Assembly: GCA_047285805.1 (NCBI GenBank)
Contig: JBJBCN010000002.1
Coordinates: 128,001 to 192,000 of the forward strand
Source of the DNA: Synechococcus sp.
Lineage (GTDB): Bacteria > Cyanobacteriota > Cyanobacteriia > PCC-6307 > Cyanobiaceae
Length of the DNA: 64,000 bases
Reading direction: 5' to 3'
Shown: positions 18,458 through 34,763 of the stretch, one piece after another
How positions within the stretch are numbered: the stretch's first letter is position 1
Layout of the letters: the number at the start of each line of letters is the position of its first letter
Made by a program: the position numbers and the translations under genes
The notes under the pieces: generated by a model
What the model was told of the DNA's origin: nothing
Seen by the model: only the letters and a program-made list of their open reading frames with translations
Databases searched by the model: none

Positions 18458-18955
18458 ATGAGTAATCGCGATGCAGGATATGGGCATCCATTTCTTAGCC
18501 CTGAGAATCCATCGGCAAAAGATTCTGTCTTGGCGGTTCCTGATGAAAAGGAATCAAGTCTTACGCTGAAAGAGGCCGAAGGAGGTGAGCTTGTCACTGC
18601 ACCATCTTTGGAATCTGAGGAAAAAAATGAAAGTGACTTAGGCAAAACTCTGGATCAATTTCTGCACGGCATTAGGCTCCTGGAGAAGCTTAACCTTTCC
18701 GAGTTCAGACAGATTTATCCTGTATTTCTGACATTGATGTGGTCCGTGCTCATTGGAAGCGCTCTTGCAGTAGGAATCAGCTGCCTTAACTCTGTAAACA
18801 GCATTCCAATCGTGGGAAGTATATTAGAAAACATTTTTGAACTAACTGGCGGTGCTGTGATCGTTCGCTTTGTGGTGTCGAAGCTGCTCTTGCATCGCAC
18901 AAGAGCGGATCTCTTTGCGAGGATTGCAATGGTCAAGAAAGACTTGCTTAACTGA
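18458..18955 (+). CDS. CAAD/CURT1-domain membrane protein
   Basis: Acidic N-terminus, two TM helices, NSIPIVGSILENIFELTG, LLHRTRADL typical of CAAD. Confidence 0.75.
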   Translation: MSNRDAGYGHPFLSPENPSAKDSVLAVPDEKESSLTLKEAEGGELVTAPSLESEEKNESDLGKTLDQFLHGIRLLEKLNLSEFRQIYPVFLTLMWSVLIGSALAVGISCLNSVNSIPIVGSILENIFELTGGAVIVRFVVSKLLLHRTRADLFARIAMVKKDLLN

Positions 18956-19486
18956 GGTGCTTCATGTGAGATTCTTTCAAGTTGCTTGAAAAAAATTGTC
19001 GCTACAGCTTTTATGTAACTAATACCTCAGTATTTACTTGTATCTATTGTCAAATGACGTTGAGAGCAAGCATGAAGTCTCTCTATACGTGCTGTGGCTC
19101 ATGCTCATAATGAGCACGGTTTCCTGAGGTTTCTGAAGTCAGCCCTTTGAATCCGGTTGGTCCAAAACGGCTAAGGTCTGCTTCTTGAGGGCTCTGTCTT
19201 GTCGGTGTCTCAGTCATGGAACGTGAGGGGGCCGGATCTGCATGCTGTGGGAATAGATACGAACGGGAACGAGGGCCCCCAGATTCATAACCTCTAAGGA
19301 GCTGGTTGAGTTGTCTCCCCCCCCCTGATCCGAGAAGGGGGAGTGCCAAGCTCCCCCACCCCAACGCTCCCCGCCGCGAGCTGCGGCCAGTAGAGCTGTC
19401 TGGCTAGAGGCAATTGCGAATCCATGCATTTGATGCGCATGGATTCGCTATATTTCTGTCAATATACGTAAGTTGGGAACTTCTTC

Positions 19487-19759
19487 ATGACCTTTTTGAT
19501 GCACTGGTCTTTCAAGACTGGCTATCACGAAATTGCCGCCAAGAAGTTCATGGCGACAGGTGCTCCTTTCCCGGCGTGCAAGTCCTGGAAACGCTTTCAC
19601 GCACCTGGCTCGGTAGAGGGTTGGATTCTTGTTGAGGCGGACGATGTCTCTGCTTGCTACGAGCATGCAGCTGAGTGGGCTGAGTGCCTGGATTGGGAGG
19701 TGACTCCAGTTCTGTCTGACGAAGAAGCTGGTCCGCTGATCGCCAAGGTCTACGCGTAG
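19487..19759 (+). CDS. DUF3303-like protein
   Basis: FLMHWSF, RFHAPGSVEGWILVEADD, WEVTPVLSDEEA. Confidence 0.8.
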   Translation: MTFLMHWSFKTGYHEIAAKKFMATGAPFPACKSWKRFHAPGSVEGWILVEADDVSACYEHAAEWAECLDWEVTPVLSDEEAGPLIAKVYA

Positions 19760-19861
19760 TCCTTACCGGGGCGCTGCCTGACGCAGTCGCCCCGGTCTCA
19801 ACACCCCACGCCATTTAGCAGTGGTCAGAGGGTCTGTTGACTGAGTTCGTATGAGCTGCCA

Positions 19862-20089
19862 TTAATCCAGAGGTTTAGACGTGAACTCCTCGATCAATGC
19901 GTCCATGGCTTCGTGCGCCCAGTCGCCAAACAACACCATCATGTCGCTTCTTTCTGAAGTTGGATGGACTGTTGCGCACTTAAATAGCTCTTCAGACGCT
20001 GAAGATCGTTCATCCCACGAATCTTGATGGTGGGACTTAGCGCTTGGATCGTCCAATCGGATGCGCCACCCTTGCGTCATAGGCAGCAC
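19862..20089 (-). CDS. Small hypothetical protein
   Basis: 75-aa ORF with plausible composition. Confidence 0.4.
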   Translation of the reverse strand: MLPMTQGWRIRLDDPSAKSHHQDSWDERSSASEELFKCATVHPTSERSDMMVLFGDWAHEAMDALIEEFTSKPLD

Positions 20090-20642
20090 CGACTACGTAC
20101 CTCCTCTGTAGACGGCTGCCGCAAGCGCCGATGCCAGAAACGTGACAGCGGAAACCTCTCGAGCTTCGACACTCCATCCCAATAGATTTGTTCAAGAGAG
20201 CTTCAACTTAAAAAGCAAAAGTGTGCAGGAACTTCTTAGCAAAAAAAGATCAACGAAATCGCACCGACAATGGCCAAGACCTTTCGAAGCCGCTTAAGAG
20301 CGATTTTGCAGCTCATGCGACAAAACATCCTGAATCAGCAGGGTGATCGCTACACCCATCAAAGCCAGAGAGATTCCCATCTTTGTGTCTGACGCCTTTG
20401 CTACTTCCTGCGAAAGATTTAGGTGCTTCCCCCATTCGAAATGCATCAAAGCGTTCCAGCTACTGACAAATTAGGCCATAAGAATCTGTTGTTGCGTCCA
20501 TAAGTGCAGAAGGCTTAAGGCTGTGTACCACAGCTTGTGTCTGCGGATCTTGATGCAGCCGCCCAGAAGGCAGCAGTTCATACCATTTGCAAAACAGATG
20601 GCATCGAGTCACGATAAGTTACAGGAGTGACAAGGGGATTCA

Positions 20643-20831
20643 GTGAAACAGCTATCGCTTTCAACGACTCAGCACTTTGAGATAGAGCGTTTTAGTCGCC
20701 AAATTGACAAAACTGAAGATATCGATAGCTTGCAAAAACTTGCCAAGAGTTTGCTCAGAGCCTGGATTCAGCAAAAAGCAGCAACCAACTGGGCCATATC
20801 AGAGTCAGCCAAAAACATAGGTAGTGAGTAA
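20643..20831 (+). CDS. NblA-like small helical protein (phycobilisome degradation adaptor family)
   Basis: LSTTQHFEIERFSRQID...LQKLAKSLLRAWIQQKAA fits the NblA LS/T-x-x-Q-x-F helix-loop-helix pattern; GGGGA RBS-like sequence. Confidence 0.65.
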   Translation: MKQLSLSTTQHFEIERFSRQIDKTEDIDSLQKLAKSLLRAWIQQKAATNWAISESAKNIGSE

Positions 20832-20884
20832 ATTCGCAAATTTTAAACTCAATCAGTCTTTCTTTCCATTTATAGCTCTCTGAG

Positions 20885-21736
20885 ATGAAGAAAAGCATTG
20901 CCATTATTGGATGCGGCTATGTTGGCGGAGATTCTGCAATTGCTCTTAGGTACTCCGGATACAGGGTTACTGGTACATCCCGATCAACCCAGGGACTGAT
21001 CGGAATTCGCGAGATTGTCGATGAGGCTTTATTGCTGGACATTTCCGATGAATACTTTCCTTCGTCTTTTCTGGAGCATCAGAATGCAGTCCTTGTCTCA
21101 GCAGCTCCAACTCGGCAAGGCGAAGGATATGAATCTCTATTCGAAAAGGGGATAAACAATCTTGCAAACGCGTTGCGTAGGCGTAGGAGCAGTCATCCCC
21201 TGCAACTTATATACATTAGTTCAGTGGGAGTCTATGGTGACTGCGGAGGTGAGATGGTGAATGAGACTTCAGACGTCGATTCTAGTCATTGGGTGAATAA
21301 ATTGATGGCAGCTTCAGAAAAGTCGCTTCTGACTTTAGATAGAAAAGATACAGTCACCTGCATTCTGCGGCTGGGCGGAATATACGGCCCAGGACGTGAC
21401 ATGATCTCATTGATTAAGTCAGCGGCTGGCAGTCAGATACCCAAGAAGGGAGATGATATTCAGTCATGGACTAGCATAATTGATGCGACAAGAGCGATCA
21501 AGTTTTCGCTCGACAACGACTTGCAGGGTATATACAATGTTGTTGATGATACGCGGCTTACTCGCCGTCAGCTGTCAAGCAAGATTTGCGAGGCAGAAGG
21601 GCTCCCGCCTGTTATCTGGGCAAACACGAACCTTCCGGGTATGAGAGTATCAAATGCCCTCGTCTCAAACCAAAAAATAAAAGACGCAGGCTTTAAGTTC
21701 TCTTCGCCAAAGATGTTTGTTGAAGTTGCCGCTTGA
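20885..21736 (+). CDS. NAD-dependent epimerase/dehydratase (atypical SDR)
   Basis: IIGCGYVG, YISSVGVYG, LRLGGIYGPGR, YNVVDD, VSNQKIK. Confidence 0.88.
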   Translation: MKKSIAIIGCGYVGGDSAIALRYSGYRVTGTSRSTQGLIGIREIVDEALLLDISDEYFPSSFLEHQNAVLVSAAPTRQGEGYESLFEKGINNLANALRRRRSSHPLQLIYISSVGVYGDCGGEMVNETSDVDSSHWVNKLMAASEKSLLTLDRKDTVTCILRLGGIYGPGRDMISLIKSAAGSQIPKKGDDIQSWTSIIDATRAIKFSLDNDLQGIYNVVDDTRLTRRQLSSKICEAEGLPPVIWANTNLPGMRVSNALVSNQKIKDAGFKFSSPKMFVEVAA

Positions 21737-21956
21737 ACTTGATGGCCCCTGTATTTAGCTATGCCAGTCTTTTGCCTCATGTTGCATTGCTGGCAAGGTT
21801 GCGGTGCTCGGAAATAAACTAAGCAACTTACCTATTTCCATTTATAAATGGCGATCTGTGTGAAGGACCGCTTCTTCTGTGAGCAGAGCATCTGCTGAAT
21901 AATCAACTTTCTGTCTCCTCAACAAAGCAAGACAGTAGTGTTTTGCTTCAGGCTGC

Positions 21957-22748
21957 TCAAGGTAGAGCGAATAAAAGCCGTTCCCAGTAACGCAACCTGT
22001 GATGTTCATCAAAGTCGATGCGCAGCTCTTGAAAGCGTGAAGGCTGCAAACATCCGACCTCCAGGCGAAAGCCACCATATGGCAAGCGCTCAGGAACACC
22101 ACACGCCAATCCATCATTAAATACTCCTCGTAGCTCTGCTTGAAGAAAGGGTTCGGGATCCCACCGTACCGACTCTGGCGTTGATGACCGGCCAGTAACC
22201 CCGGAAAGCGGATTGAAGCGTTCGACAACTCCAGAGCAACCATCCAACGGCTTCAATAACGCACCGATCGAGCTGGCCTGGGGCCTTGATGGTTCCATCT
22301 CCTCGCTGAGCTGACAACGAAACGCCACAGCACCAATTGTATTCAGGCGCCAATTCAATCCATCCGGCTTCCAAATCAGCACCAGCATCGAGCGAGATCG
22401 GCCGTGGAAGAAATTGATTTCGTGGCCAAACCGGCGCATATCATCGGAAACCTCCAGGCTCGACTGACCCCCAGCACCTGCAAATTGCCAGCAGGCTCCT
22501 GAAGCGTTGTAATCGGATCGACTCAAGGCGTACTGCGCTGCACCACCAGGAGCAAAGAACAATCCAGTGCCGTCCCAAAGACCGGTATCGGCATCCTCAA
22601 AGCTGATTGCGTAGCGGGTCTGACCCACGATGCTGGTGGGCTGACGCAAATCAAGTTCGCCATCGTCTCGACGGACATACCAATGGCTGTTCCCTTGCCA
22701 CAAACCCTCAAAGTTGAGGCGGTTGTGTTCCCACTGATCTGTCATCAC
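21957..22748 (-). CDS. DUF3598-like hypothetical protein
   Basis: QWEHNRLNFEGLWQG N-terminus, HEINFFHGRSRSMLV. Confidence 0.6.
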   Translation of the reverse strand: MMTDQWEHNRLNFEGLWQGNSHWYVRRDDGELDLRQPTSIVGQTRYAISFEDADTGLWDGTGLFFAPGGAAQYALSRSDYNASGACWQFAGAGGQSSLEVSDDMRRFGHEINFFHGRSRSMLVLIWKPDGLNWRLNTIGAVAFRCQLSEEMEPSRPQASSIGALLKPLDGCSGVVERFNPLSGVTGRSSTPESVRWDPEPFLQAELRGVFNDGLACGVPERLPYGGFRLEVGCLQPSRFQELRIDFDEHHRLRYWERLLFALP

Positions 22749-23317
22749 TGCTTCTTAGCTAAATGACGTGAATAGGGCTCAAAGCAACTATGCGTCCGTA
22801 GGCAAGTACACAAGCCGGAAACTTGAAAGTGGACTAAACAGAAGCGTCGAAGTCCTTTCAGTATTGTGGCAACCAGCGAAGGAATGCTATGAGCCGCCCG
22901 CCTGGCTTTCTGCATCGTAGTGAAGCTTTCATCGACTAGAGCGCCCCGATACCAGTCACTCCCTTCGCGAAGTCGGCATCGTCCGCTAGCTCAATGCGCT
23001 GGTAGCTGTCGCTCCATAGCAATGGCCTGGGGATGGGTTGCTGTAATTGACACTCGCCAATATCGCGATTGATTAAGTCGACAAAGCTAGTGATCCATCT
23101 ATTGACAGGGCCAGTCACAGATGCTGGAGGCAAATGCTGCTTGTCCTGACTACGGCTCTTCGTGTAGGCGTAGGTGGCGCCTCTTCACGAAGAGATCGCA
23201 CAGCGCCCCTGCTGTCGCGCTCAGGTCTTTTCTGAATTTGGAATGTCTTGAACATGACATTCCTCTAGCGCTTGCTGTATCCGACGCGCCTTAAGGCTGA
23301 GAGCCGCAATCTCTTCG

Positions 23318-23536
23318 TCAAGGTATGGCGCTCGCGTCGGCTGAGGTCTGTGGCATCCACGTCCTCACCGATTCGCTGCCATGCCCGCTTGAGCAACCGG
23401 TAAGCCTGGCGGCAGCTGTCCCCCCCCACTCCTGTGACGAATGGGCGACACAGGCGGAGTTGGACGAGTCCTCCAGCAGCATCAGCTGCAGGATGTCGAT
23501 CCGCTCAGCGATGGCGGAGGTCGTAGCCCTAGCCAT
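23318..23536 (-). pseudogene. Truncated copy of the element HTH protein (paralogue of 31596-31952)
   Basis: MARATTSAIAERIDILQLMLLE...QEWG matches MARATAATIADRVETLQEKILE...REWG, then diverges. Confidence 0.7.
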
Positions 23537-23690
23537 CGGCTTTCTCCCGCCAGAGGTGCATCAACAGCTCGCGCTGAGCCAGGTCCAGGCCCACCCCCAG
23601 CCAGGGCAACAGCTCCGGCAGTGAATCAGTGGAGAGTTCGAGGGTGCCTGTCATGGCCTGGGTCCCCACAGCGAGGTCGGAATGGATCAC
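23529..23690 (-). CDS. 53-aa element protein, copy 1
   Basis: Manual translation from GTG: MIHSDLAVGTQAMTGTLELSTDSLPELLPWLGVGLDLAQRELLMHLWREKADG. Confidence 0.7.
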   Translation of the reverse strand: MIHSDLAVGTQAMTGTLELSTDSLPELLPWLGVGLDLAQRELLMHLWREKADG

Positions 23691-24389
23691 TGGACCGCCT
23701 GCTCAACCTGAAGGTTGTCATTTGCCTCAAAACCCTTTCCGGGAACGGGCTCAACTTTCCCTCTTGATGTTTTCGGGCGCGGAATGGGGCCCAGAACACC
23801 GACCCACTGCTCAGTAGCGGGGAGTACTGAGGTGGAGTGGGGCTCCCGTATTGCCCCACCCCGCCCCGCACTTAGAGAGAAAACCCTCTGCCCAGGACGA
23901 GCAGAAGGCCGTCGTGTTTTCCCTCCCGATGACGGTATGAAGAGCGCAGCCACATGCCGGTGCTCGAAATCACTTCGGTGCCCTCTGTCATTTACCTACG
24001 TCTGTGCCCAACCAACAGCTCCCCTAGCCACTGCTCAGTAGCGGGGAGTGTTTTGGGGGAGCGGGATGACCTCCCCCCGCTCGGATCACGAACCCACCGG
24101 GGACCGTGTCCTCAGTGGTTATGGCTCAAGTTTGGCTGGGCGTGCAACCCTTGGTCCAAAGATTTGGTGGGGCGAGATGCACCTCGCCCCTGAGGCGATG
24201 TCTTGACGAAGAGAAACGCCTCAATCCCGGTATGCCACTGCAATCTCGGGGGCATGTACGCCTCTATACAAACTGAAAAAATCCCCTACTGGAAGCCAGT
24301 AAGGGAGAGCGTCTCTTCGTCAAAAAGCGCAGTTCTTTCCTACGAAGCCGACCTGCCCTGGCGCAAGAAGCATTTGTTACTACCGCTCG

Positions 24390-24731
24390 TTACTGGCGCT
24401 CCTGGGGATGATCTGACAGTCCGACGATCCAGTCAAGCTGCCCGACGCTAGCCGCCAGTGCCCCTGGCTGATTTGTGTGCAGGCACATTTGGCAGCCTTC
24501 CAACAGCAAGTTGATCACCTGGGCGGTCAGAGCCCTCCTGTCCCACCCCGATTCTTCGTAGTCATCACGAAACAGGTCGAAGGCGTCAGCCACGGCGCGC
24601 TGGGCAGTCCTGCGACTGCAGGGTCCGCCCCCTACCCCCTGCGACAGAAACGTCACGACGGCACTGGGGCTTTTCCCCTTGTGGAGGAGGTCCAGAGCGT
24701 CTTCAGCGCGGGCTGCGGTGCGTTTCTTCAT
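24390..24731 (-). CDS. Element HTH protein (distant paralogue of 31596-31952)
   Basis: SRRTAQRAV, DRRALTAQ, NQPGAL...LDWIVGL align with the paralogue. Confidence 0.7.
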   Translation of the reverse strand: MKKRTAARAEDALDLLHKGKSPSAVVTFLSQGVGGGPCSRRTAQRAVADAFDLFRDDYEESGWDRRALTAQVINLLLEGCQMCLHTNQPGALAASVGQLDWIVGLSDHPQERQ

Positions 24732-24889
24732 TGCCGGTACTCCTGGCGTAAGCAGTGCATGAGCAGTTCCCTGAGGAGGAGGGCGACGCCGACGGCGAAG
24801 AGCGGCACCAGCTCCGGGAGGGACTCAGGCGAGATCTGCAGGGTGCGGGTCATGGCCTGTGCCCCTTTGACCAGGTCGGGGTGGATCAC
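24728..24889 (-). CDS. 53-aa element protein, copy 2
   Basis: IHPDLVKGAQAMTRTLQISPESLPELVPLFAVGVALLLRELLMH; GTG start; ATGA overlap with the next gene. Confidence 0.7.
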   Translation of the reverse strand: MIHPDLVKGAQAMTRTLQISPESLPELVPLFAVGVALLLRELLMHCLRQEYRQ

Positions 24890-25173
24890 CTGCCCAGCAC
24901 CCCGTTGAGCGAATCCAGCTCGCTGTCGAGCAGAGAACACTCTGCGGCGACCTCACGCTCTGCCCTGGCGACCTTCTCGTTGAGGTCATCCCGCTTGGCT
25001 GTCAGCTCCGCGATGCGGGCTTCGACCTGGTTGTAGACCGCCGGCTTGCTGCAGAGCCGCGGCAGTTCTTCCAGCCAAAACCGCTCAAGTCATGCCGGGG
25101 GCAGTCCAGAGGCGCTGGGGTCGCTCAGGAGCTGCTTGTCGCGATCGTTGAGGACAGCATCCAGGGCACGGCT
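24886..25173 (-). pseudogene. 5'-truncated coiled-coil element gene with an internal stop
   Basis: ...DPSASGLPPA*LERFWLEELPRLC...LNGVLGR*; its stop overlaps the GTG of the next gene. Confidence 0.5.
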
Positions 25174-25196
25174 GTAATCGCCCCCATCAACCCGCA

Positions 25197-25290
25197 GCCA
25201 ATCAGCGCAGGGGCAACGACCTCCGCTGGACGGCAGAAGAAGGCATGGGGCAGGGCTGAGCAGTCCTTAGTGATGGGCTGGATGGCTATG
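25197..25290 (-). pseudogene. 5' fragment of 3-methyladenine DNA glycosylase (MPG family), copy 1
   Basis: ALPHAFFCRPAEVVAPALIGC resembles the MPG N-terminus. Confidence 0.6.
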
Positions 25291-25403
25291 GGAGTGGCTT
25301 CTGGTCTCCCTTCAGCTTGCTGACGACCAATCAACTGCTCTAAGCCCAGTGGCAATGGTGGATTTCCTGGCGAAACTCCCGCCAGAAGTTGAGCGCGAGC
25401 GCA

Positions 25404-26441
25404 ATGCAGCAGTCCACTCGCCTGAGCCTCTCCCTCACTGGTGCAGCTGCTTTGGCACTGGCATCAATGCCTCAGGTGAGCGCAAAGCCTGCAGTGGTGG
25501 CGCAAGGGAGCGCGGAAGACCTTGGTGTGATGCGCATCCGCCTCAAGGATGTGGTCAAACCGCAGGTTGGAGTTCAAGGTCAAACTCAAGCGGCTGGTAC
25601 CCCGAATGAGGCAGGCATTGGCGGCTTTATGCCGCTGGTGGTGGGAGAGAACAGCGTTTTCTTTGCTGATGTGCTGGCGAATGCGAACTTCGCGGACTGG
25701 GGCAACAGCAGCAGCATCATCAATACGAAGGTGGCGGGTCCCACCATCAGCACGTCATCCAGGCTTGGGTATCGCTGGCTGAATGGTGACCGCAGTTGGA
25801 TGTTTGGTGTCAACGGTGGGTATGACACCCGACCGATGGCAACGGGTGATGCCGATACAGGTGTTGCGGTCTCTGGTCAGCGGACAGTCTTTTTCCAGCA
25901 GGCAGCGTTTGGCTTGGAGGCAGTGAATGATGACTGGAGCTTCAATGCCTATGGATTAATACCAACTGGAACAACGGAATACAGGTTGAATAGTGCTTAC
26001 AACGGGGGAGCACTGGATACGTATGGGTTTGATGCGGGCTACAGCATCACGCCAGAGTGGAAGCTGAGTGTTGGCTATTACTACCAGAATGGCGACCTCA
26101 ATACAGCTGATGGCTCAGGCGTGCTGGGGCGACTGGCTTACAGCATCAATGAGGGAGTAACGGTTGGCACCAATCTGTCTTATGACAGCGCGTTTAAGTC
26201 ACGCTTCTCAGCTGACATTAAGTGGCGGTTCAATACGGCAGGAATTTCGCAAAGCGAGAAGCAGAAGAAAGCGTGGGAGAAGCCAACGATTAAGGCATTA
26301 ACTGAGAGCGTGAAGAATAGGGATGTACGGGTGCACGATACGACCTGGTGTAATACCCCAGGCGGGGAACCGGGAGTATTAGTAAATACCCCTAGAACCG
26401 GGAAGTCTGTGTGTGTCACGATTAGACCCGCCCCAATGTAG
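25404..26441 (+). CDS. Outer-membrane beta-barrel, inverse-autotransporter (intimin/invasin beta-domain)-like, with a 33-aa C-terminal peptide
   Basis: Signal peptide, amphipathic strands, RLGYRWL...WMFGVNGGYD, QQAAFGLE, NAYGLIP, linker ESVKNRDVRVHD. Confidence 0.75.
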   Translation: MQQSTRLSLSLTGAAALALASMPQVSAKPAVVAQGSAEDLGVMRIRLKDVVKPQVGVQGQTQAAGTPNEAGIGGFMPLVVGENSVFFADVLANANFADWGNSSSIINTKVAGPTISTSSRLGYRWLNGDRSWMFGVNGGYDTRPMATGDADTGVAVSGQRTVFFQQAAFGLEAVNDDWSFNAYGLIPTGTTEYRLNSAYNGGALDTYGFDAGYSITPEWKLSVGYYYQNGDLNTADGSGVLGRLAYSINEGVTVGTNLSYDSAFKSRFSADIKWRFNTAGISQSEKQKKAWEKPTIKALTESVKNRDVRVHDTTWCNTPGGEPGVLVNTPRTGKSVCVTIRPAPM

Positions 26442-26465
26442 GGTGAGCCTAACCACCCAACGCCC

Positions 26466-26493
26466 AAAGCCCCTGTAACCGCAGGGGCTTTTT
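26466..26493 (+). terminator. Intrinsic terminator after barrel gene 1
   Basis: aaagcccctg-taaccg-caggggcttttt. Confidence 0.85.
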
Positions 26494-26745
26494 ATTTCTT
26501 CAGTCACACCAATAAGCCAGCAAATCAGCATCCAATACCTGGCACCATCGCCTTCGGCTCAGCCCAATGGCAGGTCACTCACGGCATTCTTTGCCTCATC
26601 GCAAGACCACAAGACACACCAAAGCTATCCTCAATATCTTTATCCCTACTTCTATCCTTATTTTCTCAACGCATTCACCAATAACTTCGCTCTCTATCGC
26701 CATCATTGATGCCATTGGTGCGTCTAAACATCACCGTCACCTGAT

Positions 26746-26838
26746 GCCAATCAGCTCAGGGGCAACGACCTCCGCTGGACGGCAGAAGAAGGCGTGGGGC
26801 AGGGCTGGGAAATCTCTGGTGACGGGCGGGGTGGCTAT
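26746..26838 (-). pseudogene. 5' fragment of MPG-family glycosylase, copy 2
   Basis: DFPALPHAFFCRPAEVVAPELIG. Confidence 0.6.
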
Positions 26839-26951
26839 GGGAGTGGCTGCTGGTCTCCCTTCAGCTTGCTGACGACCACCCAACTGCTCTAAGCCCTGTG
26901 GCAATGGGGGATTTCCTGGCGAAACTCCCGCCAGAAGTGAGCTCAAGCGCA

Positions 26952-27941
26952 ATGCAGCAGTCCATTCGCCTGAGCCTCTCCCTCACTGGTGCAGCTGCTT
27001 TGTCACTGGCATCAATGCCTCAGGTGAGCGCGATACCTGCCGTGGTGGTGCAAGGGAGCGCGGAAGACCTTGGAGTGATGAGCATCCGCCTCAAGGATGT
27101 GGTGAGACCGCAGGTAGGAGTTCAAGGTCAAACCCAAGCGGCTGGCACCCCGAATGAGGCAGGCATTGGCGGCTTTGTGCCGCTGGTGGTGGGAGAGAAC
27201 CGTGTCTTCTTTGCTGATGTGCTGGCGAATGCGAACTTCGCGGACTGGGGCAACAGCAGCAGCCTCATCAACACCAAGGTGGCTGGCACCACCATCAGCA
27301 CGTCATCCAGGCTTGGGTATCGCTGGCTGAATGGTGACCGCAGTTGGATGTTTGGTGTCAACGGTGGGTATGGCACCCGACCGATGGCAACGGGTGATGC
27401 CGATACAGGTGTTGCGGTCTCTGGTCAGCGGACAGTCTTTTTCCAGCAGGCAGCGTTTGGCTTGGAGGCAGTGAATGATGACTGGAGCTTCAATGCCTAT
27501 GGATTAATCCCAACTGGAACAACGGAATACAGGTTGAATAGTGCTTACAGCGGAGGAGCACTGGATACGTATGGGTTTGATGCGGGCTACAGCATCACGC
27601 CAGAGTGGAAGCTGAGCGTTGGCTATTACTACCAGAATGGCGACCTCAATACAGCTGATGGTTCAGGGGTGTTGGGGCGACTGGCTTACAGCATCAATGA
27701 GGGCGTAACGGTTGGCACTAACCTGTCTTACGACAGCGCGTTTAAGTCACGCTTCTCGGCTGATATTAAGTGGCGTTTTAATACGGCAGGAATTTCGCAA
27801 AGCGAGAAGCAGAAGAAAGCGTGGGAGAAGCCTACGATTAAGGCATTAACTGAGAGCGTGAAGAACAGGGATGTGCGGGTGCACGATCCAGATATATATA
27901 CCATTTGCATGTTTCACCTTTCATATACATACTGTGGGTAG
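26952..27941 (+). CDS. Second inverse-autotransporter-like beta-barrel with a different 17-aa C-terminal peptide
   Basis: Near-identical to 25404-26441 up to RDVRVHD, then an unrelated tail. Confidence 0.75.
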   Translation: MQQSIRLSLSLTGAAALSLASMPQVSAIPAVVVQGSAEDLGVMSIRLKDVVRPQVGVQGQTQAAGTPNEAGIGGFVPLVVGENRVFFADVLANANFADWGNSSSLINTKVAGTTISTSSRLGYRWLNGDRSWMFGVNGGYGTRPMATGDADTGVAVSGQRTVFFQQAAFGLEAVNDDWSFNAYGLIPTGTTEYRLNSAYSGGALDTYGFDAGYSITPEWKLSVGYYYQNGDLNTADGSGVLGRLAYSINEGVTVGTNLSYDSAFKSRFSADIKWRFNTAGISQSEKQKKAWEKPTIKALTESVKNRDVRVHDPDIYTICMFHLSYTYCG

Positions 27942-27952
27942 CCTGACCACCC

Positions 27953-27981
27953 AAAGCCTTTGCGTTTGCAGGGGCTTTTTT
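27953..27981 (+). terminator. Intrinsic terminator after barrel gene 2
   Basis: aaagcctttgc-gttt-gcaggggctttttt (with G-U pairs). Confidence 0.75.
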
Positions 27982-28382
27982 ACTTCTTCAGTCACGCCAA
28001 TAAGCCAATAAGCCAGCCTCCAATACCTGGCACCTTCTTCATCAACGCAACCTGATGACAGACCCATAAGGGCACTGAGCGCCTTATCGCAAGACCGCAA
28101 GACACACCAAAACTATCCCCAATATATTTCTCCCGGCTTCTATCCTCATTCCCTCAACGCATTCACCAATAACTTCCCTTTCTATCGCCATCACGTATGC
28201 CATTGGCTCGTTTAAACCTCACTGCTATCTGGTGCTACTCGTCAGGGATTTGATTGAGCCGCATAGCAAGCGCAAAAGGTAGTTGCTTCTGCCCTGGCGA
28301 TACATGCTTGCGATTCCATGTGTTTCTGGCTATTGTTTTGGTCTTTGGTTTAGCGTAATTCTGCAATAGGGGGTCGCGCCTG

Positions 28383-28670
28383 GTGGTGTCTGTTTCTGAT
28401 TTTGACAAACGCTTTAAGCGCAGTCCACTTGTTGTTTGCAGTGAGCTTGATGGTCAAATCACTTTATTTCAGAGCAGTACTTGTGACTACTTAGTGCTTA
28501 ATGAAACCGGCTCTGCGATCTGGGATGCATTGCATTCGCCTAAGACGCTCGAGCAGATTTGTGAAAAACTCTTGGCGGAATATGAAGTCACTCCTGAGCA
28601 GTGCCGGATGAGCGTGGAGGAGTGGCTTTCAATCGCAATCGCAAAAGAAATTATTGCTTTAGTCCGATGA
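28383..28670 (+). CDS. PqqD family / RiPP recognition element (lasso B1-like)
   Basis: SELDGQITL, YLVLNETGSAIWDAL..PKTLEQICEKLLAEYEVTPEQC. Confidence 0.9.
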   Translation: MVSVSDFDKRFKRSPLVVCSELDGQITLFQSSTCDYLVLNETGSAIWDALHSPKTLEQICEKLLAEYEVTPEQCRMSVEEWLSIAIAKEIIALVR

Positions 28671-28709
28671 TCTGGTGGTAAATATTATTGCTAGGGGGGT
28701 AGATAAAAG

Positions 28710-29252
28710 CTAGAAGGTGAATGTTGTTTTTAGCGCTAGTGCCCATATTTCGCTCTTGACTTTATTCTGTCCAACCATCTTGAATCCATGCCGCGCAAAA
28801 TATCGCCTCATAGATGCGTTTCGCAGGCCTGGGTTGACATTCGCTGTCAATAAATGTCTTGCTCGATGATCTCTGTTTAGGTTGTCGTTTTTAAACTCTC
28901 TGAGGAATGTCGTATAGAGCTGATTGCTCAGTCTTGGGGCGCGATGGTCGGGAAGGACATACATTCTTTGAAAGTAGGCGTGGCTTCCTAGATGCAGTTC
29001 TGAGTCTAGTGTTCGAAGGGAGACAAAAACGATTCCGGTAATCCGGCCCAGTGAATCTCGGGCTGTGGCAGCTGTGTGTATACTTAATGGTCGAAAAGCG
29101 GATCTTTGATTGATCGTTGAGATGGTTGTTGATTCTTTGAATCTCCTGAGCTCAGATTGGTAGGATTCCAGATTGGTATCCCAGAACTCCTTAAGTTCTG
29201 ACTTGAGCTCATCATTAATGGCTCCGAAGATATAGTCAACTGTGAACGTCAC
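28710..29252 (-). CDS. Hypothetical protein with a probable GNAT-like fold
   Basis: YFQRMYVLPDHRAPRLS (motif A-like), NPGL...YFARHGF. Confidence 0.55.
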   Translation of the reverse strand: MTFTVDYIFGAINDELKSELKEFWDTNLESYQSELRRFKESTTISTINQRSAFRPLSIHTAATARDSLGRITGIVFVSLRTLDSELHLGSHAYFQRMYVLPDHRAPRLSNQLYTTFLREFKNDNLNRDHRARHLLTANVNPGLRNASMRRYFARHGFKMVGQNKVKSEIWALALKTTFTF

Positions 29253-30134
29253 TTATTGATTCGTTGGTCCCGTGTAGCCAAAGCGCTTCATGGTTGCCGA
29301 CAGATTCTTTTCCAATCTTTGGCGCTGCTCGATCGTCAGTTGCTCTGCGCCCTCTCCCGTTCGCCCTGAGCGAAAGAACCGTTCACAACCGGCAGGTTTT
29401 TCTGCAAAGCCATCCACATCCTCCTCGAGCTTTTTCAGTCGATCAATGGAGGTGTTGTCTAAAGCCTTCTGAATGAGATTAGGCTCATTAGGAAGACCCA
29501 AGAATTTGACTAAGTTTGTAAACGTCTTCAATCCCTTTGCCAACATGTCTTCATAACGCATGATCAAGACTGGCAGTTGAGTTTGATCGGCCCAGGACCT
29601 CACATGCTGATCCCAGCGGCCCATGTGCTGCCGCACTTGGTGGCTACCAAAGCGCTCCCCTGGCACCAGAGCTGCATTGTGATCTAGCAGATGATCAACA
29701 CAACGCTCCAATGGCCATGAAAAGAAGTGGCTAAGTGATACGGCCACATCTTCTGGGTGGCGCAGGATATAAACAACACCAGAGCAGCCTGTTGTACTCA
29801 CCACTGGGCGCCCACGGGAATCAGGTGACTTGAATGCATCATGCACTTTGTGAAAGCGCTCTCCTTCGGCGAATAGCCACGGACTGGCACCAGCACGTCC
29901 GCGCAACGGATCAAGTTCACTAAAACTTAGATCACAACTATTGATTCCCAATTGATCGTCTAGCCATAGCCTGGAAGAGGCAATCGCTCCAGTTTCAATA
30001 TCTTGATTAAGGTTTAATTCTTCCCTAGGTTTGTCTCCGGCTAGACGCAACAGCTCAGTGATAAATACCCGGCACCAGGTGTTGCCTGATTTGGGATAAG
30101 AAGCGAGATACCAGTAACTGTAGTTGTCAGTCAT
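29253..30134 (-). CDS. Sulfotransferase (PAPS-dependent)
   Basis: LASYPKSGNTW (5'-PSB), YILRHPEDVAVS (3'-PB), RYEDM, FFRSGRTG. Confidence 0.92.
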   Translation of the reverse strand: MTDNYSYWYLASYPKSGNTWCRVFITELLRLAGDKPREELNLNQDIETGAIASSRLWLDDQLGINSCDLSFSELDPLRGRAGASPWLFAEGERFHKVHDAFKSPDSRGRPVVSTTGCSGVVYILRHPEDVAVSLSHFFSWPLERCVDHLLDHNAALVPGERFGSHQVRQHMGRWDQHVRSWADQTQLPVLIMRYEDMLAKGLKTFTNLVKFLGLPNEPNLIQKALDNTSIDRLKKLEEDVDGFAEKPAGCERFFRSGRTGEGAEQLTIEQRQRLEKNLSATMKRFGYTGPTNQ

Positions 30135-31242
30135 TGCTGGCGACTACTTCCTTGTCCTCGCTCTGCTGTTGAATCGATTCTGGTTGCATCAGGTCCACCT
30201 TCTTGAGACTTTCGGCCATTACTTTGATTCCATCTGGAACCACTAAGGCATGCACCGCAACCGATCTCGCTAACGCAGCTGCCTGCATAAAGAGCTGTGC
30301 TTCTGCCTCCATGCCGCGATACATTCTGGCGTGAAAGGCCTGGTTGCGCAGTCTCATTAATGCGGCTGTTTGTGAGAAACTGCGTGAAGCCCTGATAGAT
30401 GGTTTTGCCTTGTTAACGCCTTCTTCAGTGTCATTCTCTTTAACCGATTCTTCTTTAGCCCGATTTAAATTATAGACGAGTCGCAATGGTGTTGGCTGTG
30501 GCATGCAAGTTAAATCTTCAGCTAGCAGTGCATAGCGCTTTAGACCCTTCCGTACCGGTGGTAGCTGCGCCCAATTTAGATCCAATGCCATAGCTGCGTC
30601 ATGCCAGAGCTTGAGTTGATGCATCCCTGGCTGCACAATCCCATCGTTGCCAATGGCAACAAGTTCACTACTGAGTAGGCGCCACCCTTCTTGAAGTAGA
30701 CACCAGGCCAAGGTGGACTTGCCAGCAGCTGGATGGCCCATTAGGAGGATGGCCTCACCATCACGCTCCAGTGCTGTTCCATGCAACACCAATAAACCAC
30801 GCTGGATCGCCAACGCCCCGAGCCCACTGGTGACAGCAAACGTACGAATGTCGCGATCGCTGACGCTGTCGTCCCAGCGCTGCCATTCCAAACATTCACC
30901 ACCCGTGGCACGAAACCAGCCAATACCTTCTAGTTCCAGGCGCCAATCTTGCTGTGCTAACTGCAACGTCGGCGTGCTGTGAGGGCTCGGCTCAAGGCTG
31001 GGCCATTGCTGGTGATCAGCTTCCTTCAGCTCCACTAGCGTCTCACTGCCGGCGAGTGGAACTGCATCGGCTGGCATCAACTCCGGCAAAACCAACGACG
31101 ACGACAGCAGCATCCCGAAAGCTTGATAGGTTCCAGGAGTCGCGGCAGCCATCAGCTCAAGAACTGGCGTTGCGATGTCAATGCTCTCATCTCTGCGCGT
31201 TTTAATCGCGCAATCGATGCCAATATGAACAATCGCGTTCAA
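30127..31242 (-). CDS. HPr kinase-like P-loop kinase (lasso-peptide-cluster type)
   Basis: QRGLLVLHGTAL, Walker A GHPAAGKSTLA, LLSSEL, LKLWHDA; start may be ATG 31152. Confidence 0.85.
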   Translation of the reverse strand: MNAIVHIGIDCAIKTRRDESIDIATPVLELMAAATPGTYQAFGMLLSSSLVLPELMPADAVPLAGSETLVELKEADHQQWPSLEPSPHSTPTLQLAQQDWRLELEGIGWFRATGGECLEWQRWDDSVSDRDIRTFAVTSGLGALAIQRGLLVLHGTALERDGEAILLMGHPAAGKSTLAWCLLQEGWRLLSSELVAIGNDGIVQPGMHQLKLWHDAAMALDLNWAQLPPVRKGLKRYALLAEDLTCMPQPTPLRLVYNLNRAKEESVKENDTEEGVNKAKPSIRASRSFSQTAALMRLRNQAFHARMYRGMEAEAQLFMQAAALARSVAVHALVVPDGIKVMAESLKKVDLMQPESIQQQSEDKEVVASND

Positions 31243-31441
31243 AAAGGAACTGAGGCTGCATGCTCGCCATGCCCCTGGACTACCGACGCGCCATCACCAT
31301 CAATACGAATCGGACCGGCCCCTTATTGACCGTCACCCGCAAAAGAACGGGGAAGGCTGGCTGCTGATCAAACAGGAGCGGCTTGGAGCTGCCTTAAGTA
31401 CAAACTTGATTCTCTTGTTAGAGGACAATCTGGTCCCAGTG

Positions 31442-31603
31442 TTGATTCATTCAGACATTCTCAAAGGTGCTCAAGCACTAAACCATTCATTAGAGATCAG
31501 GTCCGAGTCCCTTCCAGAGCTTTTCCCGCTCTTCGCAGTTGGTCTGGTCATCACTCAGCGCGAGCTGTTGATGCACCTATGGCGCCATGAGGTCGATGGC
31601 TAG
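31442..31603 (+). CDS. 53-aa element protein, copy 3
   Basis: IHSDILKGAQAL...SLPELFPLFAVGL...QRELLMHLWR. Confidence 0.7.
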   Translation: MIHSDILKGAQALNHSLEIRSESLPELFPLFAVGLVITQRELLMHLWRHEVDG

Positions 31604-31952
31604 AGCAACCGCTGCCACCATTGCTGACCGGGTCGAAACCCTTCAGGAGAAGATCCTGGAGGGGACATCGAACACCGTCTGTCTCGCCTATGCGCGACGT
31701 GAGTGGGGGGTCTCAAGGGCTCAGGGCTACCGACTGCTCAAGCGGGCGTGGCAGCAGATCGCCGAGGACATTGATCGTGTCGGGATCGACCGGCGCGAAA
31801 TGTTGAGCTGGGCTATCCACCAGCTCCAGTCAGCGGCTGGGCTGGCCCTCAGTCAGAAGAACCCTGGAGCGGTGGTCGGTGCCATCAGGGAGATGGATGT
31901 ACTGCTTGGGCTTGGCGCCAGCAGCAACGCCCGTGGCCAGCGGTGGCGCTGA
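31596..31952 (+). CDS. Element HTH protein (possibly terminase small subunit-like or a regulator)
   Basis: YARREWGVSRAQGYRLLKRA HTH-like segment; overlaps the upstream gene. Confidence 0.7.
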   Translation: MARATAATIADRVETLQEKILEGTSNTVCLAYARREWGVSRAQGYRLLKRAWQQIAEDIDRVGIDRREMLSWAIHQLQSAAGLALSQKNPGAVVGAIREMDVLLGLGASSNARGQRWR

Positions 31953-32198
31953 TCAGAAGTACTGGCGGTAGGGACGCCCTTCCTTGGTGGTGCCCTCGGT
32001 GTATCGCCCGCCTCGGGGGCCGTACTGGGTTTCGTTGTTGAAGCTGGCTGCACTGTTGCGGCTCTGCCGCTTCAGCTCAGAGCTGCGAGCAACAGACTCA
32101 GCAGCTTTTTTCATGGCTTGAGCCGCCCTTCGGAGCCTGACGTTCGGCGGATCTTTCGTGTCCCCGTAAGGACTGCCTGACCAGTTGATCAACGGCAT
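31953..32198 (-). CDS. Small basic hypothetical protein
   Basis: GPRGGRY...RPYRQYF; AGGAGGA RBS upstream. Confidence 0.6.
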   Translation of the reverse strand: MPLINWSGSPYGDTKDPPNVRLRRAAQAMKKAAESVARSSELKRQSRNSAASFNNETQYGPRGGRYTEGTTKEGRPYRQYF

Positions 32199-32237
32199 TC
32201 CTCCTGTGACCGCCCCAACATTAGGCGGCTGATTCCA

Positions 32238-32438
32238 TCACCAAGGCTCCTTCTCCCAATGGTCACGCCGGAGCTTGCGGCAGAGGTCGCACATGCAGGT
32301 GAAGTCGTCACCCTCGCCCTCGTACCCGTTGAATCCACCCACGCCCCAGCGGGTGTGAAGGGTCCAGCGGAACTCGACGGCCAGCTCCTCGTCAGTGGGT
32401 CGGGTGTTCAGGCCGCTGGTCATGCCTCCATGGTGCAC
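32238..32438 (-). CDS. Small hypothetical protein with CxCxxC
   Basis: CMCDLC; GGAGG before the internal Met at 32423. Confidence 0.5.
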   Translation of the reverse strand: MHHGGMTSGLNTRPTDEELAVEFRWTLHTRWGVGGFNGYEGEGDDFTCMCDLCRKLRRDHWEKEPW

Positions 32439-32452
32439 CTAGCGTCTGCGGC

Positions 32453-32659
32453 ATGAAACGCCTGCTTCTGCTGCTGGTGCCGATTGCCCTCCTGGCAGGG
32501 TGCCAAAAGACTTACCCAGATTCCGAGGCGGCTTACTTCGCCTGCCTTGAATTTGAGATGGAGAAGAAGGTGGACAGGACCCGCTGTCGATCCGCAAGGT
32601 CCTCAAAGCCGCACTACAAGACCGAGTTCCGAGGCAAGGACTACCGCTTCTACTACTGA
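32453..32659 (+). CDS. Small lipoprotein
   Basis: MKRLLLLLVPIALLAGC lipobox. Confidence 0.7.
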   Translation: MKRLLLLLVPIALLAGCQKTYPDSEAAYFACLEFEMEKKVDRTRCRSARSSKPHYKTEFRGKDYRFYY

Positions 32660-32914
32660 GGCATCGTGTGCCAGTGGGTTTGAGACGCCGGAGACCTTGT
32701 CCAGCCAGGTCTGTCCAGACCCTCGATCCGAAGTCGTATCGCTGAGGTTCCGGCCAGGTGGCCGGTGGTGAGACGCCAAAACCCAGGCCCAGCTGGGCCT
32801 AAGACTCACCGCCGCCGGCGAACTGTCCTGCGTCACTGCCTATCCCGCCGGTACGCCAGGGCTGCATCTGATCCAAAAGATGTGTGCAAGCATCCTCCGA
32901 GCTTCTAGAAGGAC

Positions 32915-33217
32915 ATGGCCAAGGGCTACTGGAACGTCGCGGGCACAATCACCAATCCAGAAGGGATGGGGCCTTACATCGCAGCCGCAGGAACCTATCT
33001 CGCCAAATGCGGAGCACGCTTCCTTGTTCGAGAGCTGAACACTGATGTCCGCGAAGGCAACCCGGGCCATCTGACCGTGATCATCGAATTCGAGAGCCTG
33101 GCTGCTGCGAAGGCTGCTTACGAGGCTGTTGAGTACCAGGAACTCAAGAAACTCCGCGACCCGCACAGCAATGTCTGTGTTTCCATCATCGAGGAAGGCG
33201 ATCATGCCGGGCACTGA
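32915..33217 (+). CDS. DUF1330 family protein
   Basis: MAKGYW, GARFLVR, VIIEFESLAAAKAAY..EYQ. Confidence 0.85.
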   Translation: MAKGYWNVAGTITNPEGMGPYIAAAGTYLAKCGARFLVRELNTDVREGNPGHLTVIIEFESLAAAKAAYEAVEYQELKKLRDPHSNVCVSIIEEGDHAGH

Positions 33218-33335
33218 GCTTTCCGTAGCCATGAAAAAACCGCGGTGGCTTCTCCGCGGCTTAGATCTCCCTACCCAGGAATCCTCCCGGATGTCGTCAT
33301 GGTGCCGGCGCTCGTAGCCGTTTCAATCCGTACGT

Positions 33336-34763
33336 CTACTCAGGCTCATCGTCCTCCATCAGGTAGGGCAGTGCCCCTCGGGCGGGAGGTACTTGCTCCA
33401 GACCCATTGGCAGCATTGGGATCTCTTTAGTTCCCGGCACTTCCCCTGCGGGTAAAGCTGGGCGTTCTGGAGTTCCCGGGGGGAAGTCGTCGGGAACTTG
33501 GGAGACTTCAGTCACTGACTGACTTCTCGCTAAATTCCTTCCTTCCTCCCTTGCGTCCCCACGCGACTGGAGCCGCTGAAGCTCTTTCGGTGGCAGGGCG
33601 TAGTGACCGCGGTGCGGCCTGACGATTCTCTTCTCGCCGAACAGGCTCCCGAGGGTGTTGTCCACGGTTTTCGCCGCGAAGCTGTGCTTCTGGAACACCT
33701 CGTCGACTACGCCTCTGCGGCTGATCGACATCACCCCGCGCTGATGCCCGCCCCAGAGGACATCGATCACGGCTTCCGAGCAGTTGCCGACGATCTCGAC
33801 TTCCGGTGCGATCAGTAGCTGGCCTGTCTCCCGGTTCAGGCTGTAGACCACACCCCGCAGGGGATCGACCACAGCTGCTCGATCCTTCTTGAACTCGGCT
33901 TTGACGCCAAGGTCTTTGCCTTCGTCATCCTGTTGCCGGCTCAGCCGGATGACCATCGATGGCTCTTCAGCCCTTGCCTTTGCCCCGCTGTGGGCACCGT
34001 CTTTGGTTCCGTCATGGGACAGGAAGACGATGCTCGCGTCGTGTGGCTGGCAGATGCTTTGCCGCAGGTAGCGCAACATGTTGCCGACGCTTTCGTTCGA
34101 CGAGTAGCTCCACCCAGCTGCGCTGCTGACTGACTTCGCAGAGTCGATGAGCACCAAGTCGATCGAGTGCTTTTGGATGAACCGCTTCAGCTCGACAACT
34201 CCGTTGATGTCGGCTCGCCAGGCTTCATGGCCTTGATCTGGGGCGTGAGCCCAAGTCCAGATCATTTGAGCGGGGTCGCCGTTGGTCAGCAGCGCGTCGT
34301 GCGGGTCGATGGCCAGGTCATCCATCGCTTTGATCAGCGGCCCGGCGCCGCTGTCAGTCGCGATGAAGAGGCTGCGCCCCGTGTTGCTGTTGCCTGTTCG
34401 ATCTAGGAACGGCAACCCCTTGGCGAGTGCCCATGCCAAACCCAGCGCCATGGTGGTTTTGCCACAGCCGTAGGACCCGTAGATCAGGGCCGCATCACCC
34501 CTAGGTACCCATCCATCGATCAGATACCGGAGCTGCTCGATCCTGGTGAGGTCAACACCGTCGTGCTTTTTCCTGACCTTGGTTGTGGCCTGGTCTCCAA
34601 GGATTCGGAACAGGCGGCTGTTGATCTGCTCGTCGGTCAGTCGGAACTGCCCCTTGAGCGTCGATCGACAATCCATCTCGTCGTCTTCGCGCCGGTCCCT
34701 AATCGCTTCCAGCAGGAGCTGAAGGGTTTCCGTGAAAGCCAGAGCGTCGCTTGCTTCACTCAT
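33336..34763 (-). CDS. AAA/RecA-like (RepA-type) replicative helicase
   Basis: Walker A GSYGCGKT, Walker B LVLIDS, VFLSH, C-terminal wHTH-like region. Confidence 0.85.
   Translation of the reverse strand: MSEASDALAFTETLQLLLEAIRDRREDDEMDCRSTLKGQFRLTDEQINSRLFRILGDQATTKVRKKHDGVDLTRIEQLRYLIDGWVPRGDAALIYGSYGCGKTTMALGLAWALAKGLPFLDRTGNSNTGRSLFIATDSGAGPLIKAMDDLAIDPHDALLTNGDPAQMIWTWAHAPDQGHEAWRADINGVVELKRFIQKHSIDLVLIDSAKSVSSAAGWSYSSNESVGNMLRYLRQSICQPHDASIVFLSHDGTKDGAHSGAKARAEEPSMVIRLSRQQDDEGKDLGVKAEFKKDRAAVVDPLRGVVYSLNRETGQLLIAPEVEIVGNCSEAVIDVLWGGHQRGVMSISRRGVVDEVFQKHSFAAKTVDNTLGSLFGEKRIVRPHRGHYALPPKELQRLQSRGDAREEGRNLARSQSVTEVSQVPDDFPPGTPERPALPAGEVPGTKEIPMLPMGLEQVPPARGALPYLMEDDEPE

Follow-up and report, generated by a model that had tools for sequence, protein, structure and literature searches.

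Intimin-type barrel proteins with hypervariable, even-cysteine tails in Synechococcus: a likely natural display library of disulfide-looped peptides

The 64,000-nt stretch of the Synechococcus sp. genome analysed here (contig JBJBCN010000002.1, positions 128,001–192,000; hereafter the window) contains two tandem open reading frames, ORF1 and ORF2, whose products share a predicted 12-stranded barrel and a linker and then end in unrelated short tails with two cysteines each. On the evidence of a structural model, both proteins are distant members of the intimin/invasin type (inverse autotransporter, type Ve), reduced to barrel and linker. Across the family, near-identical barrels and conserved downstream DNA enclose tails that have been replaced en bloc, and the great majority of cysteine-bearing tails contain an even number of cysteines. 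Many of the barrel genes are followed by the hairpin and facing tnpA_REP module known from prochlorosin (procA) genes, a link that is new. We consider it likely that these multicopy minimal inverse autotransporters constitute a natural library of disulfide-looped peptides displayed at the cell surface, with recombination shuffling the tails and diversifying selection acting on them.

The barrel scaffold

An AlphaFold2 model built from 108 sequences (mean predicted local distance difference test score, pLDDT, 70.8) has 12 long strands at residues 54–276, followed by two helices (285–297) and a linker. Its top matches in Foldseek were invasin (4e1t, E 2.9e-11) and then intimin (4e1s and 5g26). 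An exhaustive structure search aligned 220 residues with intimin at Z 23.3 and a root-mean-square deviation of 2.6, with the next match at Z 17.8; model residues 51–313 correspond to intimin 209–449, at about 14% sequence identity. Residues 1–27 resemble a Sec signal peptide, judging from their sequence. Searches of Pfam, NCBIfam and PDB sequences returned no significant match for the barrel. The Pfam family IAT_beta (PF11924) does not match the window proteins, although 72 of the 108 members match it weakly and Atlas neighbours at 0.97 carry it in 43% of members. Relatives are named either 'carbamoyl-phosphate synthase L chain', which is a mis-annotation, or, in one source, 'inverse autotransporter beta domain-containing protein'.

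In the available text of PMC7718877, the first extracellular domain of intimin, D00, spans K450–S550. As model residue 313 corresponds to intimin 449 and D00 begins at K450, the variable tail starts at the position of an inverse autotransporter passenger and, for that reason, would be exposed outside the cell. Ig-like (Big) and lectin passengers are absent, and the long tails (19 proteins) contain no Pfam domain above the cut-off. In the accessible parts of two surveys, cyanobacterial inverse autotransporters are described as barrel-only (Tsai et al. 2010, PMC3008723; Heinz et al. 2016, PMC4943183), and the second accepts barrel-only members within the inverse autotransporter family.

Replacement of tails at a sharp junction

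ORF1 and ORF2 lie within a duplicated unit of about 1.55 kb. As the first-pass annotation of this DNA had claimed, they match closely up to gtgcacgat (26339 and 27887, respectively), with 96% identity across residues 1–312 and 42 mismatches over the final 900 nt upstream of the junction, and then switch to tails with no DNA similarity to each other (z −0.5). This pattern greatly exceeds chance and extends across the family: in 92 pairs from 60 loci whose final 300 nt are at least 90% identical and whose tails are unrelated, identity was 0.55 at the wobble base of the last Asp codon and about 0.2–0.35 from the first tail base on. Alignment of the window copies resumes at about the stop codons and runs through the hairpin and then for about 270 bp at 78%. 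The proposed re-convergence right at the stop codon is peculiar to the window pair; the fixed 3' landmark of the family is the hairpin. Contigs from read runs contained joints across tail 1 (26344 to 26463) and tail 2 (27887 to 27978); loose ends occurred at 27887 and at 26465–26466.

Over the last eight barrel codons, codon choice is no more conserved than elsewhere (51 dereplicated barrels), which argues for a constraint on the protein, and not a DNA site, as what fixes the 5' border. A site-specific signal (G-quadruplex, G4, or chi-like) at the border between scaffold and core was considered and is unsupported by codon choice; no G4 prediction was run.

Tails are replaced en bloc. The DNA of unrelated tails has a mean z of 0.57, exceeding 3 in only 2 of 66 pairs, while the spacers between stop codon and hairpin are still similar in 46%, and gradual drift of the tails was rejected on these grounds. 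Loci L077 and L075 differ at none of 900 upstream positions and at one of 85 after the hairpin, and carry different tails; these show a patchy likeness by eye, but their z is 0.9. Two pseudogene copies have two in-frame stops in common and only three differences over the last ~615 nt, and differ in their two-cysteine tails and in their N-termini, which indicates recombination among paralogues. Related tails were also found on different barrel subtypes.

Substitutions differ between barrel and tail, a comparison that the first-pass annotation had suggested. In five of eleven related-tail pairs, pooled after exclusion of two identical-tail and four redundant pairs, the ratio of nonsynonymous to synonymous changes was 28:3 in tails and 35:87 in barrels (p 3e-10), with one pair dominating the barrel total. 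The barrels are under strong purifying selection.

Queries with the DNA of tails (133 in all) found nothing but other barrel tails in the window genome and in the fetched loci. Tail 1 DNA was found in 2 of 401 family genomes, plus one 21-nt chance match. Tails had no match in 50,697 phage records or in IMG/VR, and the window genome contains no orphan tail cassettes. A diversity-generating retroelement was also considered and rejected, as the genome lacks a reverse transcriptase (the control search was positive in 3 of 14) and a template repeat.

Length, cysteine parity and composition of the tails

A homologue search scored 2412 of 8000 candidates, of which the best 120 were used together with 91 cluster members; with 126 locus tails and 11 genome copies added, and seven of 213 proteins excluded for lack of the junction, the set comprised 343 tails, 276 of them distinct, in 250 families. 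Tail length ranges from 2 to 123 aa (median 23.5). Cysteines make up 7.4% of tails vs 0.02% of barrels and are present in 207 of the 250 families, in even number in 203 of these (no cysteine in 43 families, one in 3, two in 150, three in 1, four in 45, six in 7 and eight in 1). The four families with an odd count compare with 118 ± 7.9 expected (5000 shuffles, minimum 92). The pattern was replicated in an independent 50%-identity set, where 97 new tails from 150 proteins (2–242 aa) included five with an odd count vs 45.4 expected. The bias is specific to the coding frame: in frame, 114 tails are even, three odd and 21 without cysteine (n = 138), and the other five frames give more odd than even counts. 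The pairing of cysteines noticed in the two window tails is therefore a property of the family.

Two further features noticed in those tails did not generalize. The [T/S]-x-C context is not enriched (Ser or Thr two residues before 71 of 477 cysteines, 14.9% vs 14.5% background, p 0.85), and both cysteines stand in it in only five of the 150 two-cysteine tails. Nor are Thr, Ser and Tyr enriched in tails over the barrel; 20 of the 207 cysteine-bearing tails lack Ser and Thr altogether and 59 of 207 have fewer Ser plus Thr residues than cysteines. LanC-like genes (PF05147; LanM/ProcM) were detected neither in the window genome (G000, 100% complete) nor in a second genome, G023, vs three of three positive control genomes. 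The window proteins have no Nif11, leader or double-glycine match, and the window genome possesses a VKOR gene. The first-pass annotation had envisaged a displayed library of disulfide- or thioether-cyclised peptides; the even-cysteine pattern and the resemblance to intimin fit the display and the disulfide, but the composition of the tails and the lack of LanC count against the thioether. The tails are probably disulfide-looped.

One broken copy (L136, G000:C2:726350-727360) has a tail that reads through the hairpin in frame, and its +1 frame encodes a two-cysteine tail that ends before the hairpin.

The downstream hairpin and tnpA_REP module

The procA genes face a convergent tnpA_REP gene, either full-length or a C-terminal fragment, with an intergenic hairpin at conserved distance, and procA is the sole tnpA_REP partner named in the study of Laurenceau et al. 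(bioRxiv 10.1101/2020.03.09.984088). The hairpin downstream of the barrels matches its printed consensus, compared by eye. Among 142 distinct junction loci, 121 with at least 400 bp downstream were scored. The hairpin is present in 59 of them, 5–129 nt (median 40) 3' of the stop codon, vs 6 of 3000 random genome windows; a facing tnpA is present in 39, near full length in 12; and the two occur together in 23, with 202–222 bp from hairpin start to tnpA end. The first-pass annotation had likened the replaced core between conserved flanks to prochlorosin diversification, and the shared module brings this parallel closer than could be seen from the two window copies.

Full-length TnpA proteins face barrels in other genomes, that of locus L139 matching PF01797 above the cut-off. 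HLH and YIHANP motifs are visible in TnpA, and the best NCBIfam match is REP_Tyr_transpos (63 bits, below the cut-off of 80); in the available text of bioRxiv 10.1101/279083, HuH and Y---NP motifs are the signature of class 2 TnpA_Y1 transposases. Among the 30 best TnpA matches in 395 genomes, at least 14 are convergent to a barrel, by eye.

A survey started from the transposase, with a query from a barrel locus and hence biased, gave 61 loci with 50 scorable tnpA 3' ends. Labelled by motif (four Nif11 labels were confirmed with TIGR03798), the partners that these ends face are Nif11-type precursors in 23 cases, barrels in 10, lasso-like WxTPKI peptides in 3, CCRG-2-like peptides in 2, another family in 2 and nothing recognisable in 10. 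The names CCRG-2 and lasso-like are ones that we presume to fit, there being no family match. When 73 module sequences (290 bp) were placed on a tree, those with barrel, Nif11 and CCRG-2-like partners were intermingled. At least 10 changes of the barrel label are needed on well-supported branches, and the label forms a single group in 0 of 200 bootstraps, so the module often switches partners or recombines. None of the ten Nif11-domain genes checked in the window genome has the hairpin.

Some of the smaller partners deserve mention in their own right. The WxTPKI peptides (L159:2841-3050, L178:3580-3822 and L179:2930-3142) have no NCBIfam match, and the tnpA modules that they face form a distinct clade; no lasso-like precursor was found in the window genome. 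CCRG-2-like small peptide genes with variable cores face tnpA fragments at L153:5073-5393, L203:3237-3440 and L021:5201-5575. A family of about 240-aa frames with a variable C-terminal end also faces tnpA_REP (L148:3551-4252 and L161:3457-4188, the former without an NCBIfam match).

Proposed mechanism

We propose that the proteins would be exported through Sec by means of the N-terminal signal peptide, and that the paired tail cysteines would be oxidised in the periplasm, closing a disulfide loop without the help of a dedicated maturation enzyme, a chemistry that we infer from the observed pairing pattern. The barrel would then insert in the outer membrane, where, by homology, the RDVRVHD linker would thread the pore and leave the tail (median 24 aa, 2–242) outside. 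Whole tails are exchanged, and the survivors change mainly at the amino-acid level, as the pairs described above show. The exchange would proceed by recombination, with the barrel 3' end and the hairpin–tnpA_REP module as flanks. The tails may act as rapidly changing tags on the cell surface, for identity or for binding, in conflicts with phages, grazers or neighbouring cells.

Nicking by TnpA_REP at the hairpin may stimulate tail exchange, to which we give clearly less than an even chance; against a causal role of TnpA, the hairpin may be a simple two-way terminator. The causal role of the transposase is unresolved for procA too (authors' post-submission note, bioRxiv 10.1101/2020.03.09.984088). 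Slightly more doubtful is a broader proposal, in which the hairpin and facing TnpA_REP would form a general, scaffold-independent peptide-diversifying device of picocyanobacteria: a single-strand nuclease acting at the hairpin would drive replacement of the coding 3' end 10–400 bp upstream, at least four unrelated scaffolds (Nif11/procA, barrels, CCRG-2-like and lasso-like) would have recruited it, and the barrels would be an evolved autodisplay library of disulfide-constrained peptides.

Several observations weigh against the proposal of a displayed, recombining library. Confidence in the structural model is moderate overall and falls to 60–67 over linker and tail, and even the best IAT_beta match among the 108 members is not significant (E 0.014). 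The cysteine-free families (43 of 250) have no disulfide to form, and exported proteins in general favour even cysteine counts, so parity points to an oxidising location and not to a function. The pN/pS of tails, about 2.7, is not significantly greater than 1 (p 0.12, five pairs). The window genome has no Y1_Tnp catalytic domain and no intact TnpA, and no facing tnpA could be detected at 82 of the 121 barrel loci; both findings also count against a causal role of TnpA. No donor of new tails was found in the window genome, the fetched loci, the 401 family genomes or the phage records.

Expression and alternative explanations

Published proteomes contain one member of the family. The supplement of Biller et al. 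(PMC9298688) lists it in vesicle proteomes with 12 spectra (trypsin/Lys-C), the peptides coming from the linker region, and contains a 16-residue two-cysteine peptide that occurs in the total proteome only and is absent from the list of vesicle peptides obtained with trypsin. These peptides are encoded, in order, by locus L213, whose entire tail after RDVRVHD is the 16-mer; one member is thus translated with its tail and reaches vesicles, in favour of our proposal. As the samples had been reduced and alkylated, with Glu-C among the enzymes (PMC9298688), the tail peptide informs on neither a disulfide nor natural cleavage. Contigs from RNA runs contain parts of the barrel, which is no demonstration of transcription in this strain.

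The same peptide bears on an alternative that we regard as unlikely, in which the barrel would work as leader or exporter, with the tail cut off behind the conserved Asp and freed as a diffusible cyclic peptide (a signal or antagonist), resembling a ribosomally made, post-translationally modified peptide (RiPP) without modifying enzymes. The peptide begins exactly after that Asp, the His-Asp end of the linker is almost invariant, and where the tnpA module has other partners these are leader–core peptide precursors. However, Glu-C is able to cut after Asp, the tail peptide is missing from the trypsin list, the His-Asp motif falls on intimin's structural linker in the alignment, and no recurrent protease or immunity gene is present beside the 145 barrel loci.

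An equally small chance is given to a variable lid or plug, with the barrel as the functional part (a pore, or a surface protein resembling a phage receptor) and the tail as a disulfide-stapled cap that masks or gates it. The purifying selection on barrels would agree with such a role, as would tails of merely 2–10 aa or without cysteine and the treatment of cyanobacterial members as barrel-only in the parts of the surveys cited above. By homology, though, the pore is already filled by the linker; tails reach 242 aa; and the window genome holds up to 11 paralogues, five barrels being 93–100% identical and differing mainly in the tail, which suits a repertoire of tails over a need for transport.

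A further alternative makes the tails RiPP precursors with thioethers (lanthionine), for which ProcM/LanM or adjacent PqqD, kinase or sulfotransferase genes would supply the modification; it is largely refuted and in our judgement very improbable. It could appeal to the module in common with procA and to the PqqD-GNAT-sulfotransferase-kinase block near the barrel in 10–13 of 145 loci, but thioethers do not need even parity, the Ser/Thr content and context of the tails, the missing LanC-like genes and the missing double-glycine leader all speak against them, and one tail was detected as a plain peptide in the reduced, alkylated proteome. Neutral decay, with tails as read-through or remains of truncated long passengers, has hardly any standing: four of the eleven genome copies are broken and one of these has a frameshift read-through tail, but the restriction of parity and cysteine enrichment to the coding frame refutes it, the frameshifted copy keeps a two-cysteine tail in its +1 frame, the long tails have no Pfam family, and no fused homologue of 577–2000 aa occurs among 7999 candidates (a weak test). 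The first-pass annotation had itself named absent cysteine bias, random read-through and truncation of a longer passenger as signs against its reading, and the tests bore out none of the three.

Genome context, copy number and distribution

The window genome contains 11 barrel copies, seven intact and four with stops or frameshifts; five of its barrels are 93–100% identical to copy 1 and bear three unrelated tail types. Another genome has up to 18 family matches. Counting weak hits, the family is matched in 78 of 395 genomes of the picocyanobacterial family, and it occurs in a few gammaproteobacterial records as well. The gammaproteobacterial homologues are close and have even-cysteine tails (L060 and L061 in a Halioglobus record; L025, L052, L056, L064 and L067 in metagenome-assembled genomes); one gammaproteobacterial record with barrels is a complete chromosome with three copies. 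Protein P0253 (1010 aa) has a Baseplate_J domain N-terminal to a barrel fragment and a two-cysteine tail and is possibly an assembly chimera.

Table 1. Features of the barrel locus and its surrounding island (window coordinates)
Feature	Coordinates	Strand	Basis or remarks
Barrel gene copy 1 (ORF1, 345 aa)	25404..26441	+	Residues 1-27 signal-peptide-like, 54-276 predicted 12-stranded barrel, 277-312 helices and linker, 313-345 tail
Barrel gene copy 2 (ORF2, 329 aa)	26952..27941	+	Open reading frame and similarity to copy 1
Codons for linker end NRDVRVHD, 5' border of variable cassette	26316..26339	+	Conserved across family; aligns with intimin linker end
Variable tail 1 (33 aa, 2 Cys)	26340..26438	+	In a 5-sequence tail family; 2 further variants in own genome
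Variable tail 2 (17 aa, 2 Cys)	27888..27938	+	DNA in 1/401 family genomes searched (own genome)
Hairpin 1, terminator-like element, matches procA-tnpA_REP intergenic hairpin	26466..26491	+	z −4.8; consensus of bioRxiv 10.1101/2020.03.09.984088
Conserved hairpin-to-tnpA spacer downstream of copy 1	26492..26677	.	202-222 bp between hairpin start and tnpA end (23 loci)
Short 3' tnpA_REP remnant facing copy 1	26678..26752	-	72% over 25 aa vs full-length TnpA of locus L139
Hairpin 2, terminator-like element	27953..27978	+	z −2.2
3' tnpA_REP remnant with one internal stop, facing copy 2	28166..28312	-	75.5% over 49 aa vs residues 262-310, L139 frame
Methylpurine-DNA glycosylase (MPG) 5' stub, divergent upstream of copy 1, inside duplicated ~1.55 kb unit	25185..25343	-	tblastn 64% to full PF02245 protein
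Second MPG 5' stub, abuts tnpA remnant, divergent upstream of copy 2	26740..26898	-	Like arrangement in locus L076
Island of ~21 kb	16257..37587	.	tRNA-Ala 3' repeat 16257-16307 to tRNA-Ala 37514-37587
Integrase-like gene in island	36050-37483		
AAA_25 helicase gene in island	33336-34763		

The barrel pair lies in an island of lower GC content that resembles a tycheposon, an element defined in the tycheposon preprint by a tRNA-targeting integrase of the tycheposon lineage and a replication module: it sits at tRNA-Ala(GGC), and an att repeat and integrase-like and helicase genes are present. The island also contains an inverted, 71%-similar pair of a small gene region of unknown kind (23422–23627 and 31505–31710) and repeated elements of ~50–70 bp at 16497, 23792 and 24012. 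In Rfam, the sole match is a tRNA. Outside the island, 8610–10973 encodes a low-GC TPR-repeat protein whose C-terminal half looks methyltransferase-like on inspection.

An MPG gene or its 5' stub is found divergent upstream of 17 of the 99 barrel loci with enough sequence and is intact beside the C3 barrel copy of the window genome (G000:C3:202795-203463); it probably marks the ancestral site of the window barrel subfamily. Downstream of copy 2, a block of PqqD, GNAT, sulfotransferase and HPr-kinase-like genes occupies 28383–31242. The 10–13 loci with such genes within 3 kb of a barrel include the window, and in most the genes lie downstream, in a like layout.

Comparison with known systems and implications

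The barrel proteins resemble inverse autotransporters in their signal-like N-terminus, the predicted 12-stranded barrel and the helix and linker that match intimin 209–449. In contrast to intimin and invasin, the window-type barrels have neither LysM nor an Ig-like passenger, and a hypervariable, even-cysteine peptide of 2–242 aa is found in its place. Like procA, the barrel genes combine a conserved 5' scaffold with a hypervariable 3' core, the same hairpin consensus and, in 39 of 121 loci, a convergent tnpA_REP, at conserved distance. The scaffold, however, is an outer-membrane barrel instead of a Nif11 leader, and the tails would be cyclised by disulfides with no need for ProcM, whereas prochlorosins are cyclised by lanthionine. 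Barrel tails also look replaced en bloc, whereas procA cores are described as evolving by indels (bioRxiv 10.1101/2020.03.09.984088).

Two other comparisons suggest themselves. Polymorphic toxin systems and other surface proteins that swap C-terminal cassettes consist of a constant export domain, a sharp border motif and swapped C-terminal modules, and the barrels likewise have a constant, putative export domain, a sharp border motif, swapped C-termini and broken paralogues as possible donors. Unlike polymorphic toxins, barrel tails are mostly shorter than 40 aa, contain no known toxin domain and are followed by no immunity gene, with a terminator-like hairpin and antisense tnpA there instead. 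Diversity-generating retroelements concentrate variation in a surface-exposed region at the C-terminus, followed downstream by a hairpin, an arrangement that the barrels would share, but barrel tails differ in length and at all bases, and reverse transcriptase and template repeat are missing.

Full-text literature searches, whose scope excluded most subscription papers, yielded no prior description of the tails or of the barrel–tnpA link, and none is given in the available parts of PMC10783134 and of the tycheposon preprint. The family, set aside until now as 'barrel-only' or given the mistaken label carbamoyl-phosphate synthase, carries hundreds of unrelated, probably constrained peptides. 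Found in about a fifth of the genomes of the picocyanobacterial family, with weak hits counted, it would represent a second large peptide library besides the prochlorosins, one that needs no modifying enzyme; as this library would stay bound to the cell, display would allow a direct screen for its targets. For cyanobacteria, a small barrel with tolerance for arbitrary disulfide peptides is likewise a candidate display scaffold. Because the hairpin–tnpA_REP module is common to unrelated scaffolds, whatever diversifies prochlorosin cores must work independently of the scaffold, with leader-specific signals not required, and the shared module makes the question of how those cores are diversified testable.

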